Below, one piece after another: positions 27,679-63,245 of a stretch of DNA of 64,000 bases. The position numbers were made by a program, and so were the translations under genes. The DNA is from a virus (taxonomy: Duplodnaviria > Caudoviricetes): positions 253,723 to 317,722 of the IMG/VR virus record IMGVR_UViG_3300037780_000034, one strand, 5' to 3'. Numbering within the stretch: the first letter of the stretch is position 1; each line of letters opens with the position of its first letter. The notes beneath the pieces are model-generated. The model made no database searches. It saw only the letters and a program-made list of their open reading frames with translations, and was not told the origin of the DNA.

Positions 27679-28251
27679 ATGAAAGCATTGTGGCAAATGT
27701 GGCCGAATCATCTTAACGATGAAACTATAAATGATATTATTTCAGAATGTGGACAATATCCAGTTCAAGATGCAAAGCTTGGAATTAACAACAATGATGC
27801 AGACATTTCTTATCGTAGTAGTCAGATAAGATGGGTTCACGGTAATAACCCAAGTAGTAGATGGATTAAAGATTTAATATTCGATTTTGCACAAACAGCA
27901 AATAGAAATGCATTTGGATTTCATATTGATATGATTAACGATATTCAATATACAGAATATCACGGAACAAATGAAGGAAAATATGAATGGCATTTTGATA
28001 CATTCTGGGATTCAAACAATCCTTATGATAGAAAAATTTCAGTAGTAATACAATTAACTGATGGATTTAGTGATTATGAGGGTGGAGTTTTTCAAATTGA
28101 TCCACAGTTTCCACAACCAGATCAAAATTTACTTAGAACAAAAGGAACAGTATTTGTGTTTCCATCTTTTTTAAGTCATCGTGTTACTACAGTAACCAGT
28201 GGAACAAGAAAGTCTCTTGTTAGTTGGGTAGAAGGACCAAGTTTTAGATAA
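27679..28251 (+). CDS. 2OG-Fe(II) oxygenase (prolyl-hydroxylase / PKHD-like)
   Basis: YEWHFD (HxD), RKISVVIQL, YEGG, FPSFLSHRV (distal His), RKSLVSW. Confidence 0.9.
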   Translation: MKALWQMWPNHLNDETINDIISECGQYPVQDAKLGINNNDADISYRSSQIRWVHGNNPSSRWIKDLIFDFAQTANRNAFGFHIDMINDIQYTEYHGTNEGKYEWHFDTFWDSNNPYDRKISVVIQLTDGFSDYEGGVFQIDPQFPQPDQNLLRTKGTVFVFPSFLSHRVTTVTSGTRKSLVSWVEGPSFR

Positions 28252-43162: not shown

Positions 43163-43203
43163 TGTTATTCATCCATTTTGATTATATCTGTAATACGAAT
43201 CAT

Positions 43204-43233
43204 ATCATACTCTAAGACTATCCTTACTGTCAA
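43204..43233 (-). promoter_or_regulatory. Sigma70 promoter for the MoxR-vWA operon
   Basis: TTGACA-18-TATGAT on the minus strand, followed by TGATTCG (43196-43202). Confidence 0.6.
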
Positions 43234-57336: not shown

Positions 57337-57618
57337 AACTCCCTGTAATAAATACTATTTATTTAATAAAGCATAACTTTAAAATAATAAAGCATATCAG
57401 TAAACATAACTGAAGAACAAAATTTTGTAAAATAAAAACCATAGTTTATTATAACTTATTTAAAATTATCTAAACCATAAAAACATATTTTACAACATAA
57501 TATAAAATCCCAAAAAATCCTTAAGGCAACGAATCAAAAAAAAATTTCCCGCCAAAAAAAATCCATACCCCATAAAAACACATTTACTAAAATTTCAATA
57601 GGGTAAAAAACTACAATG

Positions 57619-57786
57619 AAAACTATTATAGAAACTATTATAGAAACTATTATAGAAACTATTATAGAAACTATTATAGAAACTATTATAGAAACTATTA
57701 TAGAAACTATTATAGAAACTATTATAGAAACTACGATGAATATTATTATAGAAACTACGATGGAAACTACGATGAAAACTATCGTG
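57619..57786. repeat. 12-bp tandem repeat GAAACTATTATA
   Basis: Eight perfect copies at 57631-57726, a one-mismatch copy at 57619, and degenerate GAAACTACGATG copies after. Confidence 0.95.
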
Positions 57787-58090
57787 GGAAAAATTCCATG
57801 TGCCGCCGATTGGAAAAAAATGGTCTGTATAAAATGTTAGGGGTGGGACTCCCGAATCACTGATTCGCTGTACACTACATGTGCCTGGTGATTCGTCAAG
57901 CAAAATTTTTCAAAAATAAAAATATTTTTTTTCTAGCTTGACAGACATTTTTGCAACACAATAATGCGAATCGTTTAGTATTAAACTATCCGACATAATG
58001 GTTCAATGATTAAACCAATCATCGTAGGGGCACACAGTGGCCCACACAATGCCACCATTGTATTGCCTACCCTACCCTACCTGTGATTAC

Positions 58091-58133
58091 GGATGCCGGG
58101 TCAGTGGGCCGTACAATGGCTCTACGATGCTAT
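58091..58133. repeat. Intergenic repeat family A, copy 1 (43 bp)
   Basis: GGATGCCGGGTCAGTGGGCCGTACAATGGCTCTACGATGCTAT; 41/43 identical to 59538-59580. Confidence 0.9.
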
Positions 58134-58209
58134 GCACAATGCCCCTTACGATAGACAAAAAAATAGGCGGGGTATTATCCCCGCCATTATTATCCCATAT
58201 TGTTTAGGA

Positions 58210-59397
58210 TTATTCTTTTATTGTGGCGCGCGTGATATTTGTTTGTTTGATATTATTATATTCACGGTGTGCTTTCACGGTAAAGTCCACAGTAAGTTTT
58301 TCACCTGTTTCAATATATTTTTTTCCGGTGAACCAAGTGAATTGATTACCAGTATTATCGGTAAAGTTATACAGATATTGTTCACCATAACCGCGATCCC
58401 CCATTGCGATTTCACGATTGACAGTCAATTCAATTCCACGATACCGAGTCCCGATTGTTCCAAAGTAATCGGAAACCGTGGCGGCATTATTGTTTTCAAT
58501 TTGTTTTGCACGATCACGCACAATAACATTTACAGCCGACACGGCGATTGCAAGGTGTTTTGTTTTGATCAGATCATCACCGATAATAACGCGCAGGTTA
58601 TTGATATAATCGCCATTCTCAGGATTATATTCCATTGTGCGAAAATGATTCATTACTGTTTCCGCCATTGCAATATCTGCTTCGGTAACGGTAATCGGGC
58701 GATGCTTTGCATTCGGTTTAAGATCATGGAATACGCGATTTTCGGTTGTCACGATTGTTTCATCATAAGAGTTCATTGCCATTGCTTTTGAAACCCAACC
58801 GGATTCACGAATATTAGCAGCAGCATATTGCAGAACAGTTTTGGTATTATAATAATCGGAACCATATCCGGCGAATGTGAGTTCATCATTTACGGCAGTT
58901 TTAATTTCAGCGAGGAAACCAGCGCGACCAGCGATTTCCAGAGGATTATCGCATCCGGTAAAGTCACGCAAACATGTGCGCCCGATTGCCAGTTGATCAC
59001 CATTTGAATTTTCAAAAACATATACATCATTGCGAACACGATTATGCCCACAATGATCACATTCCGAAACCATATGACGGAAGCGTTCATTCAATTCGGT
59101 GCCAGCAATATTATTGACGATATTTTCACCATCACGCAATTCAACACGAGCGAGAAAACGATGATCACCATATTTCGGCGCATCACCCCAAACAACAATA
59201 TCCACAAAAGTGGTAGTAATATTGCGAGGACGATTGTCGATATAAATGGTAGTATCTTTGGGATATTCTTTGCCAATGGTGTAGCCGATTGGATTGTTAC
59301 CATACTTGTTTGCCTTGCGTGCAAGCTTGTCCAGCCGCTTGATCAGATCAGCAAGGTTCAGGGCAGGGACGGCAAAGGTGTCGATGGTGGTGGTCAT
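58210..59397 (-). CDS. Early protein with CxxC Zn motif and C-terminal OB-fold-like domain
   Basis: CDHCGH..GRTCLRDF; YFGTIG..YNFTD..TWFT..TVKAHREY. Likely ATG at 59397 after GGAG (ORF track starts at 59448). Confidence 0.7.
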   Translation of the reverse strand: MTTTIDTFAVPALNLADLIKRLDKLARKANKYGNNPIGYTIGKEYPKDTTIYIDNRPRNITTTFVDIVVWGDAPKYGDHRFLARVELRDGENIVNNIAGTELNERFRHMVSECDHCGHNRVRNDVYVFENSNGDQLAIGRTCLRDFTGCDNPLEIAGRAGFLAEIKTAVNDELTFAGYGSDYYNTKTVLQYAAANIRESGWVSKAMAMNSYDETIVTTENRVFHDLKPNAKHRPITVTEADIAMAETVMNHFRTMEYNPENGDYINNLRVIIGDDLIKTKHLAIAVSAVNVIVRDRAKQIENNNAATVSDYFGTIGTRYRGIELTVNREIAMGDRGYGEQYLYNFTDNTGNQFTWFTGKKYIETGEKLTVDFTVKAHREYNNIKQTNITRATIKE

Positions 59398-59446
59398 AGC
59401 GATCTCCGAATCGTTGCGGGACAATGCCCGATGAACATTGCCCAAC

Positions 59447-59475
59447 ATATAGGGAAATTTTAATACTACGTCAAC
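59447..59475 (-). promoter_or_regulatory. Alphaproteobacterial-type RpoD promoter
   Basis: GTTGAC-N17-CTATAT on the minus strand; CGATTCG in the leader at 59407-59413. Confidence 0.7.
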
Positions 59476-59537
59476 ACCATATTTTCACCATATAAGCGCC
59501 ATCATAGTGTCAGGCTACCCTACCCTATAAAAAATCA

Positions 59538-59580
59538 GGATGCCGGGTCAGTGAGGCGTACAATGGCTCTACGATGCTAT
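59538..59580. repeat. Intergenic repeat family A, copy 2
   Basis: See copy 1; both copies are preceded by CTACCCTACCCT. Confidence 0.9.
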
Positions 59581-59581
59581 T

Positions 59582-59863
59582 CTATGGCGTATCCAAGGTG
59601 GTGCTACGGATGCAAACATAATCGCGATTATTGACTAGATATGTTCGCATTTGTTTTTCGCGCATATTGGCGATAACGATATATCCATCATCCAGCCAAT
59701 ATACGGTATCACGATGGTTCCAATAATTAAAATTCAAAATATCATTGAATAATGTTGTTTTGCCGATGTCACGAATATCTGTAACACCGAATATATTCAT
59801 AGTGTTTTTATTATTGCGCATATGGGTTTCTTTTTGTTTTGACATTATGGGGGAGTATTTCAT
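59582..59863 (-). CDS. Small hypothetical early protein (start uncertain; likely 59845, 59821 or 59799)
   Basis: Open frame between repeat elements A and B. Confidence 0.5.
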   Translation of the reverse strand: MKYSPIMSKQKETHMRNNKNTMNIFGVTDIRDIGKTTLFNDILNFNYWNHRDTVYWLDDGYIVIANMREKQMRTYLVNNRDYVCIRSTTLDTP

Positions 59864-59871
59864 CCCCCATA
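59846..59871. repeat. Stem-loop family B, copy 1
   Basis: TATGGGGGA-GTATTTCA-TCCCCCATA; identical at 60266-60291 and near-identical at 61964-61987. Confidence 0.9.
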
Positions 59872-59887
59872 TTGTGTTTATGTATGT

Positions 59888-60187
59888 TTAATCGTTTTTG
59901 TGTTTATGTTTGATATTGTCTGCAATATCAGCCAGTTTGCGAAGCATTGTTGACGACATTGCCGCATATGTTGAATGATGAACAGCATTCAACGGTTCCG
60001 GCATATTCACAATGCCTCCGAGGTCGATGGATACACGAACAGGATCATATTCTTCATCCATAAACAAAACATAATAGCTTGATACTTCGTCGTCTTCAAA
60101 TACCGGAATTGCTTTCCATTGTTCTTTCGATTCAAAAAGAAAGTTTTCATACTGGGCGAGATTGATCTTTGCAGTTGTGGTAGTCAT
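59888..60187 (-). CDS. Hypothetical early protein (~99 aa)
   Basis: ATG at 60187 (MTTTTAKINL) after AAGGA; the ORF track start at 60301 runs through the hairpin. Confidence 0.65.
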   Translation of the reverse strand: MTTTTAKINLAQYENFLFESKEQWKAIPVFEDDEVSSYYVLFMDEEYDPVRVSIDLGGIVNMPEPLNAVHHSTYAAMSSTMLRKLADIADNIKHKHKND

Positions 60188-60265
60188 CTTTGATTTCCTT
60201 TTTAAGATGGACAATAGAATATATCTCACCATAAGATATATTATAAACTTCATCTTATATTGATA

Positions 60266-60291
60266 TATGGGGGAGTATTTCATCCCCCATA
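60266..60291. repeat. Stem-loop family B, copy 2
   Basis: Identical to 59846-59871. Confidence 0.9.
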
Positions 60292-60313
60292 ATAGTTTCA
60301 ATGTGATAGCCTA

Positions 60314-60676
60314 TTACAGTTTCCAATGTTTTGTGAAGCGAAGAACACCAGAACCCTTTTCCGTCAATTTGTAGAACACCTTGGCGCGACCGGGGCCTTC
60401 CGTCACTTTGGCCTTGTGGGTGGTAACAAGGCCGGATTGAACCAGTTGCAGAGTCAGAACGCGGGAAACCGGCGCACCACGATCAGCATAGTGATAGAAA
60501 CCATTCTTTTCCGCAATCATACGAAGGGCAAGCGCACGCCCTTTGATGTCATCGAGAACGCCAGTGCCTTCGGGGCGACCGGGGTTGAACTGGCGGCGAT
60601 CAACCTCGCCATCCTTCGTCAGCTTCGTGCCAGCGAAAACGGTGGCGGACTCGTGGGCAGGGGTCATGTTGGTCAT
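60314..60676 (-). CDS. GC-rich early protein with winged-helix (PadR/MarR-like) C-terminus
   Basis: LQLVQSGLV..EGPGRAKVFYKLTEKG; ATG at 60676 after AAGGA. Confidence 0.65.
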   Translation of the reverse strand: MTNMTPAHESATVFAGTKLTKDGEVDRRQFNPGRPEGTGVLDDIKGRALALRMIAEKNGFYHYADRGAPVSRVLTLQLVQSGLVTTHKAKVTEGPGRAKVFYKLTEKGSGVLRFTKHWKL

Positions 60677-60736
60677 AGTCTTGATCCTTTCAGGTTTGTC
60701 AGGTGGTGGCGGCGTTCCTCGCTGCCTGTGAAAGAA

Positions 60737-60766
60737 CATTTAGGCCAAGGAATCACACCTTGCAAG
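60737..60766 (-). promoter_or_regulatory. Sigma70 promoter with GANTC in the spacer
   Basis: CTTGCAA-GGTGTGATTCCTTGGCC (17 nt)-TAAATG on the minus strand. Confidence 0.6.
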
Positions 60767-61672
60767 ACAAAAAACAGCAAGATCACCAAAAAAATGATAA
60801 CACACTGAAAACACAGTGAAAAAACTTACCAAACACGATGATCTACAACCGATAGGGTCACGAATCGCATATGATAGCAGGCACATGATCCGAACATATC
60901 ACACAAGATTCGCCCTACTATAGACGGAATCCGTGCCATAGAAGGATAGTATATTCCGATAACAGAATATAATTACAAAATAATCATATAATAGATTCAG
61001 ATGTAAAGAATAATGGTAATATAGATGGATAAAGAATATTGATTATATATTAAGTAATTTCACTACGTTCCATTACTTAATAATCATAAAATATATACAA
61101 TTCTTCGTTAATCACTCAGAATTTGTATATATTTTCTTTTTTTTATTTTTAATTGATTAAAGTTATATTGTAATAATTATAGAATCTTTATATATATATT
61201 TCCGTGGATTAGACACACTTTAGCTTCTCCTGCTTAAAGTGTGCCCACCCTTGTAAGAAAAAATGTATATAAACATTTCCGTATCATAGACGATAGAGTG
61301 CATTGTCCGAAACTCTATTCTCCCAATATAAATCAACCATTTTTGTAATGTATATTACACGGTATGGAAAAGGCGGTTCTGCTGTACCTTTTTACAATTC
61401 ACTAAGCGCAAAATATTAACTGCCATATTGGAAACCTTGTTAATATTTTTGTGGGTATCAAAGCGTTCTGAAACTTCCCACTCTTTTTTCAGGGTATTAC
61501 CCCGAGACCTTAAATGAACTTAATAATAATATATTAAGTGCTATCAACCCAACTCCAGACCCAATCGGTTCATCTTCGGGGCTATATTCCTATAACAATG
61601 CGGATAGCTATGATTTAGACAATTTTTAATGACAAAATATTAAAACGAATCGCTCTAACATATGACCCAATA

Positions 61673-61701
61673 AACATAACACAATATATCCAGATTGTCA
61701 A
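61673..61701 (-). promoter_or_regulatory. Sigma70 promoter driving a region with no long ORF
   Basis: TTGACA-17-TATGTT with extended TG; CGATTCG about 20 nt downstream (61646-61652). Confidence 0.75.
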
Positions 61702-61702
61702 T

Positions 61703-61737
61703 AAAAAATAGAGGGAATCTTAATTGATTCCCTCTAT
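61703..61737 (-). terminator. Rho-independent terminator after the 41-aa peptide gene
   Basis: 12-bp perfect stem ATAGAGGGAATC / GATTCCCTCTAT with 6-nt loop, followed by TTTTT on the minus strand. Confidence 0.8.
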
Positions 61738-61772
61738 CATAAACCGTATATGTGACGAAAAGTGCCGCGATC

Positions 61773-61898
61773 CTACGCAGGCATCCAGTGACGCTTGCCG
61801 TCCGAATCACGATAGCTTTTCAGCTTCGGCGCACGCTTGGGACCAGCCTTCACATATTTGGCAACACGATTCCCCGTTCCTTTTTTCGACTTTGCCAT
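61773..61898 (-). CDS. 41-aa highly basic peptide
   Basis: MAKSKKGTGNRVAKYVKAGPKRAPKLKSYRDSDGKRHWMPA; AAGGA RBS, own promoter and own terminator. Confidence 0.7.
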   Translation of the reverse strand: MAKSKKGTGNRVAKYVKAGPKRAPKLKSYRDSDGKRHWMPA

Positions 61899-61936
61899 AA
61901 CATTTCCTTTCACTTGTTTGGCTTCACCTGTAACCC

Positions 61937-61964
61937 ATATAGGGCTATTCTCAGTAGGTGTCAA
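61937..61964 (-). promoter_or_regulatory. Alphaproteobacterial-type RpoD promoter abutting stem-loop B copy 3
   Basis: TTGAC-N17-CTATAT on the minus strand. Confidence 0.75.
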
Positions 61965-61987
61965 TGGGGGAATATTTCATCCCCCAT
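61964..61987. repeat. Stem-loop family B, copy 3
   Basis: ATGGGGGA-ATATTTCA-TCCCCCAT; one loop substitution. Confidence 0.85.
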
Positions 61988-61992
61988 AACAT

Positions 61993-62265
61993 TCACATAC
62001 TCCAATATGATTCACACGATGGCGACATATACGAGGGAGTATTGGCCTTTTCCATATATTTTTCACCCGTCATCAAATTCACACGTTCAACCAAGGGAAT
62101 ATTGTCATAATATTCGTCGGCATCCATCACACAATAATCCAACGGATAATATCCGTCACGATTGCAGGCACGAGTCAGTGCAATCTTCGCACCACGTTCG
62201 GTAGGAAATTCACGATCATTGAACATCAGACGATTGGTAGCACGGTGACAAACAACATAGCCCAT
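61993..62265 (-). CDS. Hypothetical early protein (90 aa)
   Basis: CAGGAG RBS within repeat C. Confidence 0.75.
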   Translation of the reverse strand: MGYVVCHRATNRLMFNDREFPTERGAKIALTRACNRDGYYPLDYCVMDADEYYDNIPLVERVNLMTGEKYMEKANTPSYMSPSCESYWSM

Positions 62266-62324
62266 AGTCGATTCTCCTGCTGAGTTGATAAGGTTACTTT
62301 AAGGGATGATTCCCACGGTGTCAA
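62263..62324 (-). repeat. Promoter+leader+RBS+ATG cassette, family C copy 1
   Basis: 62 bp, 54/62 identical to 62494-62555; TTGACA-17-TAAAGT, GAATC in the spacer, GGAG RBS. Confidence 0.9.
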
Positions 62325-62496
62325 CCACTTTTTTATCGTCGGAATAATCGTTCTTTCCTTTTCGATAAAAATGACACGCTATAGTATCACGTGTGACAGT
62401 AAGATAATTGCCACCAGTGTAAGAATTAAATGGACAAAAACAGCACGAAAACTTGTGAGAATAATCCCAACATGTTGAACAAGTTTTCGTTTCCAT
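62299..62496 (-). CDS. Small Cys-rich early protein (65 aa)
   Basis: CSTC..CCFC..CHFY; starts at the ATG of cassette C copy 2. Confidence 0.65.
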   Translation of the reverse strand: METKTCSTCWDYSHKFSCCFCPFNSYTGGNYLTVTRDTIACHFYRKGKNDYSDDKKVVDTVGIIP

Positions 62497-62555
62497 AGTC
62501 GATTCTCCTGTTGAGTTGATAAGGAATGTTTAACGGTTGATTCCCACAGTGTCAA
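62494..62555 (-). repeat. Promoter+leader+RBS+ATG cassette, family C copy 2
   Basis: See copy 1. Confidence 0.9.
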
Positions 62556-62618
62556 TAAGTTTTTTTCATTGTGCAAATTTTCACAATAATAATTATTACT
62601 ATACAAAAATACACAGTG

Positions 62619-62647
62619 TTGACACCGTAAAACGAATCGTATATGGT
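62619..62647 (+). promoter_or_regulatory. Rightward sigma70-like promoter with CGAATCG in the spacer
   Basis: TTGACA-17-TATGGT; no convincing downstream gene. Confidence 0.5.
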
Positions 62648-62780
62648 CATTTATAGAAACCGCACAGGTAATAGCCGACGCGATAGGAGCATGGCTTCGG
62701 GGGAATCTGTCCAAAAAATAATAAAAAATACAGATTACTCCATTTTAGCCCACCATAGCTATAAAATGGCTTCTAACGAT

Positions 62781-62810
62781 ACAATACACGATTCGCAACA
62801 CAGTGTCAAG
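62781..62810 (-). promoter_or_regulatory. Leftward sigma70-like promoter with CGAATCG in the spacer
   Basis: CTTGACA-CTGTGTTGCGAATCGTG (17 nt)-TATTGT on the minus strand. Confidence 0.6.
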
Positions 62811-62814
62811 CAGC

Positions 62815-62955
62815 TTATTCTTTCATCATAAATTCCAATTCGCGCTCCATACGCTCAATATTGCGTTTAATTTTTAAATATTCTCCCATACCAATACGAC
62901 CATAACGATAAGAATCATCGTTCTGCTTATGTTGAAGCTTATATTCCAACTTCAT
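62815..62955 (-). CDS. 46-aa small ORF absent from the ORF track
   Basis: MKLEYKLQHKQNDDSYRYGRIGMGEYLKIKRNIERMERELEFMMKE; promoter TTGACG-17-TATGTT at 62999-63027; no clear RBS. Confidence 0.4.
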   Translation of the reverse strand: MKLEYKLQHKQNDDSYRYGRIGMGEYLKIKRNIERMERELEFMMKE

Positions 62956-63245
62956 ACTGTGATACACGATTCGCCCCCCATTGTCTCAATCACAATGAAA
63001 CATAACATAGCGAAAATATGCCGTCAAGATACCATTTTCATACTACGATTTTTTGATCATATTTTGCTAACCTATTGATTTCATTATGTTTTTTATATGT
63101 GGGTATGTTAGAATTTATTGTTTAAAATCAATGGGTTACACGGTTTTTATCATTTTTGTTAAATTTTACTGTGTATATATATACGTCAAAATGATTAAAA
63201 ATGGCCAAAATTGTAAAAAACAACAATTTTGGCTTATTTTATTAA

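Follow-up and report, generated by a model that had tools for sequence, protein, structure and literature searches.

The closest described counterparts of the promoter element considered here are the GcrA boxes of Caulobacter crescentus, which were reported to be "narrowly centred around -20" and at "+2 to +30" and to be nearly absent around the -10, and for which GcrA prefers the consensus TGATTCG/YGAKTCK (Haakonsen et al. 2015, PMC4647560). The protein binds to DNA as a monomer, with windows at -20 +/- 1 and -30 +/- 2, and in the promoter used for cryo-electron microscopy (cryo-EM) GAATC occupies -22 to -18, leaving 5 nt between GAATC and the -10 element (Wu et al. 2023, PMC9976885). With regard to phages, one article refers, citing Gill et al. 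2012, to GcrA homologues in phiCbK-type Caulobacter phages and describes a GcrA-dependent prophage operon in Brevundimonas subvibrioides (PMC7987155). A search of the available literature yielded no description of phage promoters organized around GANTC. Here we analyze GANTC sites in the promoters of an uncultured phage with a genome of ~318 kb, whose DNA occurs in pond metagenomes (sequencing runs of 2020-2022) and whose major capsid protein, of the T4 type, shares 65-71% identity with its counterparts in the jumbo phage group of PA5oct, GAP32, and Phosso. The stretch under study, termed the window below, comprises the final 64 kb of a linear IMG/VR contig of 317,722 bp with an estimated completeness of 85%; coordinates are window positions unless marked "genome".

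An earlier note on this DNA had pointed to a cluster of YGATTCG sites near the end of the window and linked it to GcrA. All sites listed there (57853, 57861, 57889, 57967, 59407, 60861, 61646, 61803, 62633, 62789, and 62967) are present, and a twelfth, at 57530, was missing from that list, whereas the other 58 kb of the window contain only two, at 27704 and 43196. In comparison with dinucleotide-preserving shuffles of positions 57400-63100 (n = 300), the 12 sites in these 5.7 kb stand against 2.18 +/- 1.56; the shuffle maximum was 7, and 0 of the 300 shuffles reached 12. The claimed enrichment thus holds against a dinucleotide-matched background, but the expectation of about one site was somewhat low because the stretch has a GC content of 39-41% versus 31% in the genome. 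The exact word CGATTCG was found 7 times with 0.77 expected, and GANTC in total 35 times versus 18.5 in the shuffles. A second YGATTCG cluster is located at genome 7.5-13 kb (8 sites versus 1.4 in shuffles), and the two clusters flank the contig ends. Both (window 57400-63100 and genome 7500-13000) have ~40% GC and are CpG-rich, a property for which the shuffles already account and behind which a foreign origin or a different constraint is possible. Short local repeats are shared by two to three sites (62789 with 62967, and 57967 with 62789), and therefore ~9-10 YGATTCG sites are independent, which is still well above expectation. The statement that most sites are intergenic holds true on manual reading, by which 61803 is the sole site in a likely gene and 59407 is part of a leader. 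A crude longest-open reading frame (ORF) gene call places five more sites inside doubtful ORFs.

The density of YGATTCG at 57.5-63 kb is best explained by the packing of this stretch with GANTC-bearing promoters. Sequence reading combined with a promoter scan revealed ten sigma-70-type promoters at 57.9-63.0 kb, that is, ten in 5.5 kb, and nine of them carry GANTC at about -22 to +35. To place this in the context of the genome, we used the 100 sites of the form TTGAC(A/T)-N16-18-TAnnnT as a promoter set with predicted starts. The spacer wholly contained GANTC in 21 of the 100 promoter-like sites, compared to 4.1 in shuffled spacers (maximum of 10 in 300). Ten promoters share a single register, TTGACA-N9-GANTC-N3-TAnnnT, with GANTC exactly 3 nt before the -10, where position-specific base frequencies predict ~0.4. 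GAATC was the most frequent spacer pentamer, and "GAATC 3 nt before -10" the most frequent anchored word (8 occurrences; next word, 5); GATTC was also found at this register. When the spacer and the region from -6 to +35 relative to the predicted starts were considered together, GAATC/GATTC occurred in 35 of 100 promoters and ranked first among 60 composition-matched words (median, 8). The intergenic enrichment of GAATC/GATTC equals that of the -35 box words.

The sequences flanking these sites are biased as well: 30 of 42 promoter-proximal sites (71%) fit YGAKTCK, compared to 26% in coding DNA, and 26% fit YGAKTCG, compared to 7%. The leading promoter-proximal forms were TGATTCT (15), TGATTCG (7), and CGATTCG (4). 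In the position profile, 21 sites were located at -25 to -16, none at -15 to -11, and 20 at -5 to +34, with the commonest spacer position centered near -18 and a minor GANTC peak at -45 to -36. Promoters without GANTC show T-R-T-G-n before the -10, whereas the GANTC promoters lack the TG, as expected of activator-dependent promoters. The T of GAATC falls at about -17, where 76% of the other promoters carry a T within T-R-T-G-n. The idea that sites upstream and downstream of the start have opposite orientations was rejected, as ~70% were GAATC on the sense strand in every class. A genome-wide avoidance of GANTC (668 occurrences versus 899 in dinucleotide shuffles) was likewise rejected as a signal. 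The zero-order ratio matches that of the Pseudomonas phage PA5oct (0.76 against 0.74), and since the host of PA5oct lacks CcrM, the deficit must be compositional; third-order Markov ratios were 0.90 for this phage, 0.94 for Phosso, and 1.11 for PA5oct. Taken together, the GANTC element is very probably functional and promoter-linked. We consider GANTC, with a preference for the form Y-GA(T/G)TC-K, to be a working cis-element of the sigma-70-type and presumably early promoters of the phage.

The phage collection contained no relative of the phage at the DNA level, which made footprinting in close relatives impossible, and IMG/VR contained none of its 412-aa protein. The nearest contigs by capsid were too short for footprinting, L206 was not syntenic, and larger relatives with 75-78% capsid identity did not show the layout, nor did the cultured SAR11 phages HTVC008M and Mosig. 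A scan of IMG/VR with the pattern TTGACA-N9-X-N3-TATAGT revealed many contigs with the 3-nt register. With X = GAATC there were more than 119 matches in at least 27 sequence clusters, with GATTC 58 in 31 clusters, some of them from a conserved tail-fibre coding motif, and with GASTC 42 in 14 clusters. The controls gave 8 matches for the reversed word CTAAG, 59 (33 clusters) for CAATG, which keeps the T, and 21 (9 clusters) for GAATC shifted two bases further upstream.

The same layout was most conspicuous in one lineage. G008 is a complete uncultured T4-like genome of 171.6 kb, whose capsid protein shares 68% identity with its counterparts in Melnitz and HTVC008M and which has only 43 weakly similar ORFs in common with the phage described here. 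Of the 41 promoters of G008, 15 have GAATC 3 nt before the -10, in most cases within CGAATCG or CGAATCT; in many leaders, a second site, TGATTCG, immediately precedes the ATG, and its relatives G007 and G010 display the same layout. In the G008 lineage (81-85 kb and 140-162 kb of G008), a longer promoter consensus recurs many times, TTGACATTT-N5-GCGAATCG-N2-TATAGT, and an additional GAATC frequently lies two bases upstream of its -35. The G008 leader sites, GTGATTC 3 nt before the ATG, could pair with the 3' tail of 16S rRNA and contribute to the ribosome-binding site, but this argument does not account for the leader sites of the phage described here, which mostly have the opposite orientation.

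A small methyltransferase occurs together with the layout. The phage, G008, and G007 have in common a 177-aa adenine methyltransferase of the phrog_799 family, a large and almost purely viral family, with an NPPF motif. Its gene is among the few that the phage and G008 share but Phosso and PA5oct lack. Searches for it were also negative in the complete genomes of HTVC008M, Melnitz, Mosig, G006, and G009 and in the incomplete genomes G001-G003. As only two independent lineages are involved, the co-occurrence is a lead and not proof. The gene belongs to a methylation island of four genes at genome 86704-89298, encoding a 190-aa phrog_35715 protein, a 319-aa beta-class methyltransferase, whose gene start is overlapped by the phrog_35715 gene, a 170-aa ORF product, and the 177-aa methyltransferase; two further PF01555 methyltransferases are encoded at genome 109873-110766 and 175010-176482. 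As a clue to the host, the 177-aa methyltransferase gave a single weak match, to Algicola.

The GANTC core, its flanks, the position windows, and the single-site form all resemble GcrA boxes, and therefore a GcrA-type factor is the most likely mechanism. Our first choice, to which we give somewhat less than even chances, is that a methylation-sensing GcrA-type sigma-70 cofactor reads the GANTC promoters of the phage. It builds on the enrichment, the register, the flank bias, the absence of TG, and the fact that a second lineage shows the layout too, with the phiCbK and Brevundimonas cases as precedents. In this model GANTC would occupy two positions, one 3 nt upstream of the -10 (center about -18), where it would replace the TRTG extended -10, and one in the first ~35 nt of the transcript. 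A GcrA-type factor on RNA polymerase would recognize N6-methylated GANTC and help in promoter binding and opening, so that early phage transcription would be tied to how the viral DNA is methylated. Early timing of the promoters is suggested by their sigma-70 type and by the small genes, and the presumed writer would be either host CcrM or the 177-aa methyltransferase of the phage. The proposal of the earlier note is partly borne out: the motif is linked to promoters, and its core, its YGAKTCK flanks, and its two position windows resemble GcrA boxes, but no phage-borne GcrA was found, and the commonest spacer position is near -18 and not at -20 +/- 1.

Several observations weigh against a GcrA-type factor. 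No match to GcrA (PF07750) was obtained in six frames of the phage contig at E <= 1, the contig being 85% complete, and a search with regular expressions for GcrA N-terminal motifs returned only MORN-like repeats; the GcrA family was not found in G006-G010 either. The homologue search proposed earlier for gcrA and ccrM yielded no CcrM orthologue either. With 70, 74, and 24 bits, the three PF01555 methyltransferases remain far below the cut-off of 830 of the CcrM equivalog NF050803, with a match limited to the common S-adenosylmethionine-binding motif. The main register lies ~2 bp nearer to the -10 than in Caulobacter (3 nt versus 5), and the main mode is accordingly centered at about -18, if the -10 is taken as -12 to -7, versus -20 +/- 1, while the minor peak at -45 to -36 corresponds to no described GcrA window. 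The layout is absent from the Sinorhizobium phages Phosso and phiM12 and from the Agrobacterium phage Atu_ph07, whose hosts have CcrM and GcrA. The collection-wide excess was not counted as support; the controls bracket the result, and CAATG is as frequent as GATTC. Both the transcription starts and the methylation of GANTC are predictions, and G008 encodes only a canonical tRNA-His with G-1 and C73, a misfit with the alphaproteobacterial clade lacking G-1.

A GcrA-type reader would presumably go along with an alphaproteobacterial host, for which the clues are weak and mixed. The best capsid match is the Sinorhizobium phage Phosso, with 71% identity versus 65-69% for the others, and the 5-aminolevulinate synthase of the phage is 50% identical to enzymes of Sphingomonadales, its closest relatives being encoded on short, probably phage-derived contigs in bins of mixed taxonomy. 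The tRNA-His of the phage (genome 147968-148044) has A73 and no encoded G-1, as a T precedes it, which is a further weak alphaproteobacterial clue; against such a host, it has C1-G72 and not the alphaproteobacterial-type G1-U72. Phosso itself encodes two tRNA-His, one canonical and one of the true alphaproteobacterial type. The proteome as a whole is equally distant from Phosso and PA5oct, so that relatedness does not favor an alphaproteobacterial host, and the absence of the layout from phages of such hosts speaks against one. The records of the sequencing runs name a pond as the source and give no further host clue.

Other explanations have to be weighed against a GcrA-type reader. The element might be bound by a methylation-independent, sequence-specific phage regulator that represses or activates early promoters, comparable to phage repressors and T4 MotA-type factors; the PadR-like winged-helix protein encoded at 60314-60676 or a small early protein common with the G008 lineage would be candidates. 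In agreement with this idea, two sites form a perfect 15-bp palindrome at 57853-57867, the winged-helix gene lies inside the cluster behind its own GANTC-bearing promoter, and three small early ORFs at the other contig end (genome 7378-7629, 11403-11810, and 13118-13558) have homologues in the GANTC-rich early region of G008 but none in Phosso or PA5oct; the lack of the layout in cultured phages of hosts with CcrM and GcrA also fits. However, nearly all sites are single words of 5-7 bp with asymmetric flanks in either orientation, and they occur in several registers on both sides of the -10, which is atypical of an operator bound by a dimeric helix-turn-helix protein; for the winged-helix protein, moreover, no homologue was detectable in G008, and there was no PHROG match. 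We regard such a regulator as doubtful, though well worth considering. Rather unlikely, in our view, is a self-contained epigenetic timer present in several uncultured aquatic phage lineages, in which the phrog_799 methyltransferase would mark GANTC on packaged DNA, and an as yet unrecognized phage or host reader other than GcrA would recognize the mark in leaders and at its fixed distance of 3 nt from the -10 and fire the early promoters of incoming DNA, until replication diluted the mark and shut them off.

The remaining two explanations do without any dedicated reader. GAATC 3 nt before the -10 could be an intrinsic spacer element, an alternative to the extended -10 that host RNA polymerase and its sigma factor read directly and that has no link to methylation. 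The T at about -17, the missing TG, and the frequency of the T-keeping CAATG at this register in the viral collection are what it would lead one to expect; it does not explain why ten promoters were seen where ~0.4 were predicted from position frequencies, why both GAATC and GATTC occur at the register, why leaders and the region immediately before the -35 show an enrichment of GAATC/GATTC as well, or why the flank bias agrees with the known preference of a protein, and we therefore judge it quite unlikely. Finally, the cluster could be without function and result merely from duplicated promoter cassettes in combination with a module that is richer in GC and CpG and perhaps foreign. Many CG-containing words are indeed enriched in this region of higher GC content, some sites lie in short repeats, and the genome-wide GANTC deficit is compositional, but local dinucleotide shuffles never reach the observed count, and the register holds genome-wide in unrelated sequence contexts and recurs in a distant lineage. 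This last explanation is already disfavored and appears very unlikely.

The promoters of the cluster drive short minus-strand genes, the gene of the PadR-like winged-helix protein, a phrog_2319 gene, and at least two transcripts without ORFs. GANTC is located in the spacer of five of them (60750, 62308, 62539, 62633, and 62789), of which the first three had been named before and proved real, directly after the -10 in one (57967), and in the leader of three, at about +17 (61646), +22 (62967), and +30 (59407). In the case of the promoter at 57938-57973 on the plus strand (TTGACA-N16-AATAAT, 11 of 12 matches), CGAATCG begins one base after the -10, and ~220 nt without a convincing ORF follow up to a terminator at 58166-58185. 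Both promoters described earlier as VTTGAC-N17-CTATAT were recovered, with 0.03 expected, and both are on the minus strand. The first (GTTGAC-N17-CTATAT, 59447-59475) has CGATTCG at 59407-59413 in its leader at about +30, abutting the GGAG that serves the phrog_2319 gene (58210-59397) as ribosome-binding site; the second (ATTGAC-N17-CTATAT, 61937-61965) drives a small basic ORF and is the only promoter of the cluster without GANTC nearby. The GC-rich gene at 60314-60676 on the minus strand encodes a 120-aa PadR-like winged-helix protein, the only recognizable DNA-binding protein in the cluster and a candidate reader of GANTC; a search with it for host clues gave only two weak matches, in Eremiobacteria. 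The minus-strand promoter of the winged-helix gene (TTGCAA-N17-TAAATG, 60737-60765) contains GATTC at 60750-60754 in the spacer.

The minus-strand promoter at 61673-61701 (TTGACA-N17-TATGTT) has TG before the -10 and CGATTCG (61646) at about +17. The ~700 nt downstream of it (60900-61660, minus strand) contain no ORF, tRNA, or Rfam match and possibly represent a long leader or non-coding RNA; neither the Rfam scan nor the tRNA scan gave any match in the entire 64-kb window. Two paralogous modules, both on the minus strand, follow. In that of 62270-62324, the promoter at 62296-62324 (TTGACA-N17-TAAAGT) has GAATC at 62308-62312 in the spacer, and the ATG of a 90-aa ORF is separated from its AGGAG ribosome-binding site by a second GANTC at 62270-62274. 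The module at 62501-62555 (TTGACA-N17-TAAACA) is 85% identical, with GAATC at 62539-62543 in the spacer and GANTC at 62501-62505 between the ribosome-binding site and the ATG of a 65-aa ORF. In the promoter at 62619-62647 on the plus strand (TTGACA-N17-TATGGT), the spacer contains CGAATCG at 62633-62639, and GAATC ends 3 nt before the -10; the same register is found in the minus-strand promoter at 62781-62809 (TTGACA-N17-TATTGT) with CGAATCG at 62789-62795. These two strong promoters, 62619 (+) and 62809 (-), are convergent and 190 bp apart, their transcripts would overlap fully antisense, and they could form a switch or an antisense-RNA pair. The last promoter (TTGACG-N17-TATGTT, 62999-63027, minus strand) has CGAATCG at 62967-62973 (about +22), flanked by a G-rich ribosome-binding site and the GTG with which a 50-aa ORF starts. 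Outside the cluster, the YGATTCG site at the MoxR promoter was found as described: the minus-strand promoter TTGACA-N18-TATGAT at 43196-43233 is followed by one base and then TGATTCG.

The other YGATTCG sites comprise the palindrome pair at 57853-57867, the site at 61803, and three without an assignable promoter. The palindrome, CGAATCA-c-TGATTCG, consists of two inverted YGATTCG, has the form of an operator, and adjoins 12-bp tandem repeats. TGATTCG at 57530-57536 (minus strand) is located in an AT-rich stretch without genes, and TGATTCG at 57889-57895 (plus strand) overlaps a minus-strand CTTGAC word, with no convincing -10 found after it. CGATTCG at 60861-60867, together with GANTC at 60907 and 60927 (60861-60931, minus strand), lies ~100-170 nt upstream of the winged-helix gene promoter at 60737-60765, and no promoter could be assigned to these sites. 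TGATTCG at 61803-61809 (minus strand) is inside the small basic ORF (~61778-61897, minus strand). The terminator hairpin with GANTC in both arms (61715 and 61726) was confirmed at 61707-61738 and is bidirectional.

Several repeats accompany the cluster. The 12-bp unit GAAACTATTATA is present in fifteen head-to-tail copies at 57608-57790, beside the GANTC palindrome and AT-rich DNA; these copies could be origin iterons or, if the 74-aa ORF at 57616-57840 is real, encode a repeat protein with ETII repeats. A 43-bp direct repeat with 95% identity occurs at 58091-58133, within the ORF-less transcript from the 57938 promoter, and at 59538-59580, between two genes; each copy is preceded by CTACCCTACCCT, and the repeat may be an RNA module or a protein-binding site. 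A G5/C5 hairpin, TATGGGGGAGTATTTCATCCCCCATA, with a possible ATG in the loop, is found three times (59846-59871, 60266-60291, and 61963-61988), each time just upstream of a minus-strand gene start or promoter, with translational control or processing as possible roles.

If a GcrA-type factor indeed reads these promoters, a lytic giant phage would have roughly one in three of its host-type promoters under the control of an adenine-methylation mark and could thereby tell incoming from replicated DNA or sense the cell-cycle state of its host. Epigenetic control of an entire promoter class is known from the cell cycle of Caulobacter, but no phage program is known to use it. New in this analysis is the finding that the phage has both the layout and the 177-aa methyltransferase in common with an unrelated, uncultured lineage of T4-like phages, which points to a wider, unrecognized strategy. 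Uncultured phages could be grouped by host or regulatory type with the layout as a sequence signature, and concrete objects for testing result, namely, defined promoters, two candidate writers, and a HinfI-protection assay.

Among the known systems, extended -10 or "-16 region" TRTGn promoters resemble the GANTC promoters in having a short element just upstream of the -10 that compensates for promoter weakness, but the GANTC promoters lack the TG, and their word is also enriched in leaders and has a specific flank bias. Dam methylation at GATC controls promoters of phages and transposons, such as Mu mom with OxyR, P1 cre, and IS10. These share with the phage promoters an adenine-methylation site in the promoter and an expression that changes with the replication or methylation state; they differ in the site (GATC), in their readers, and in being single promoters without a fixed-register class. 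The phiCbK phages and the Brevundimonas prophage are alike in that phage genes are tied to the GcrA/CcrM module, yet theirs is a phage-borne GcrA gene or a single operon, whereas no GcrA gene was found here and a genome-wide set of candidate boxes is present instead. The GcrA boxes of C. crescentus (Haakonsen et al. 2015, PMC4647560; Wu et al. 2018, PMC5887438; Wu et al. 2023, PMC9976885) differ in that GcrA, CcrM, methylation, and an alphaproteobacterial host are only presumed in the case of this phage, and in that the phage sites occur in about a third of the promoters of a lytic jumbo phage, with the main register ~2 bp closer to the -10 and an extra minor window near -40. In both cases, however, the sites are single and asymmetric, with a GANTC core and YGAKTCK flanks in which TGATTCG ranks at the top, they fall into a narrow spacer window and a broad window after the start that leave the -10 zone free, and in the spacer GAATC lies on the non-template strand, as in the promoter of the cryo-EM structure.

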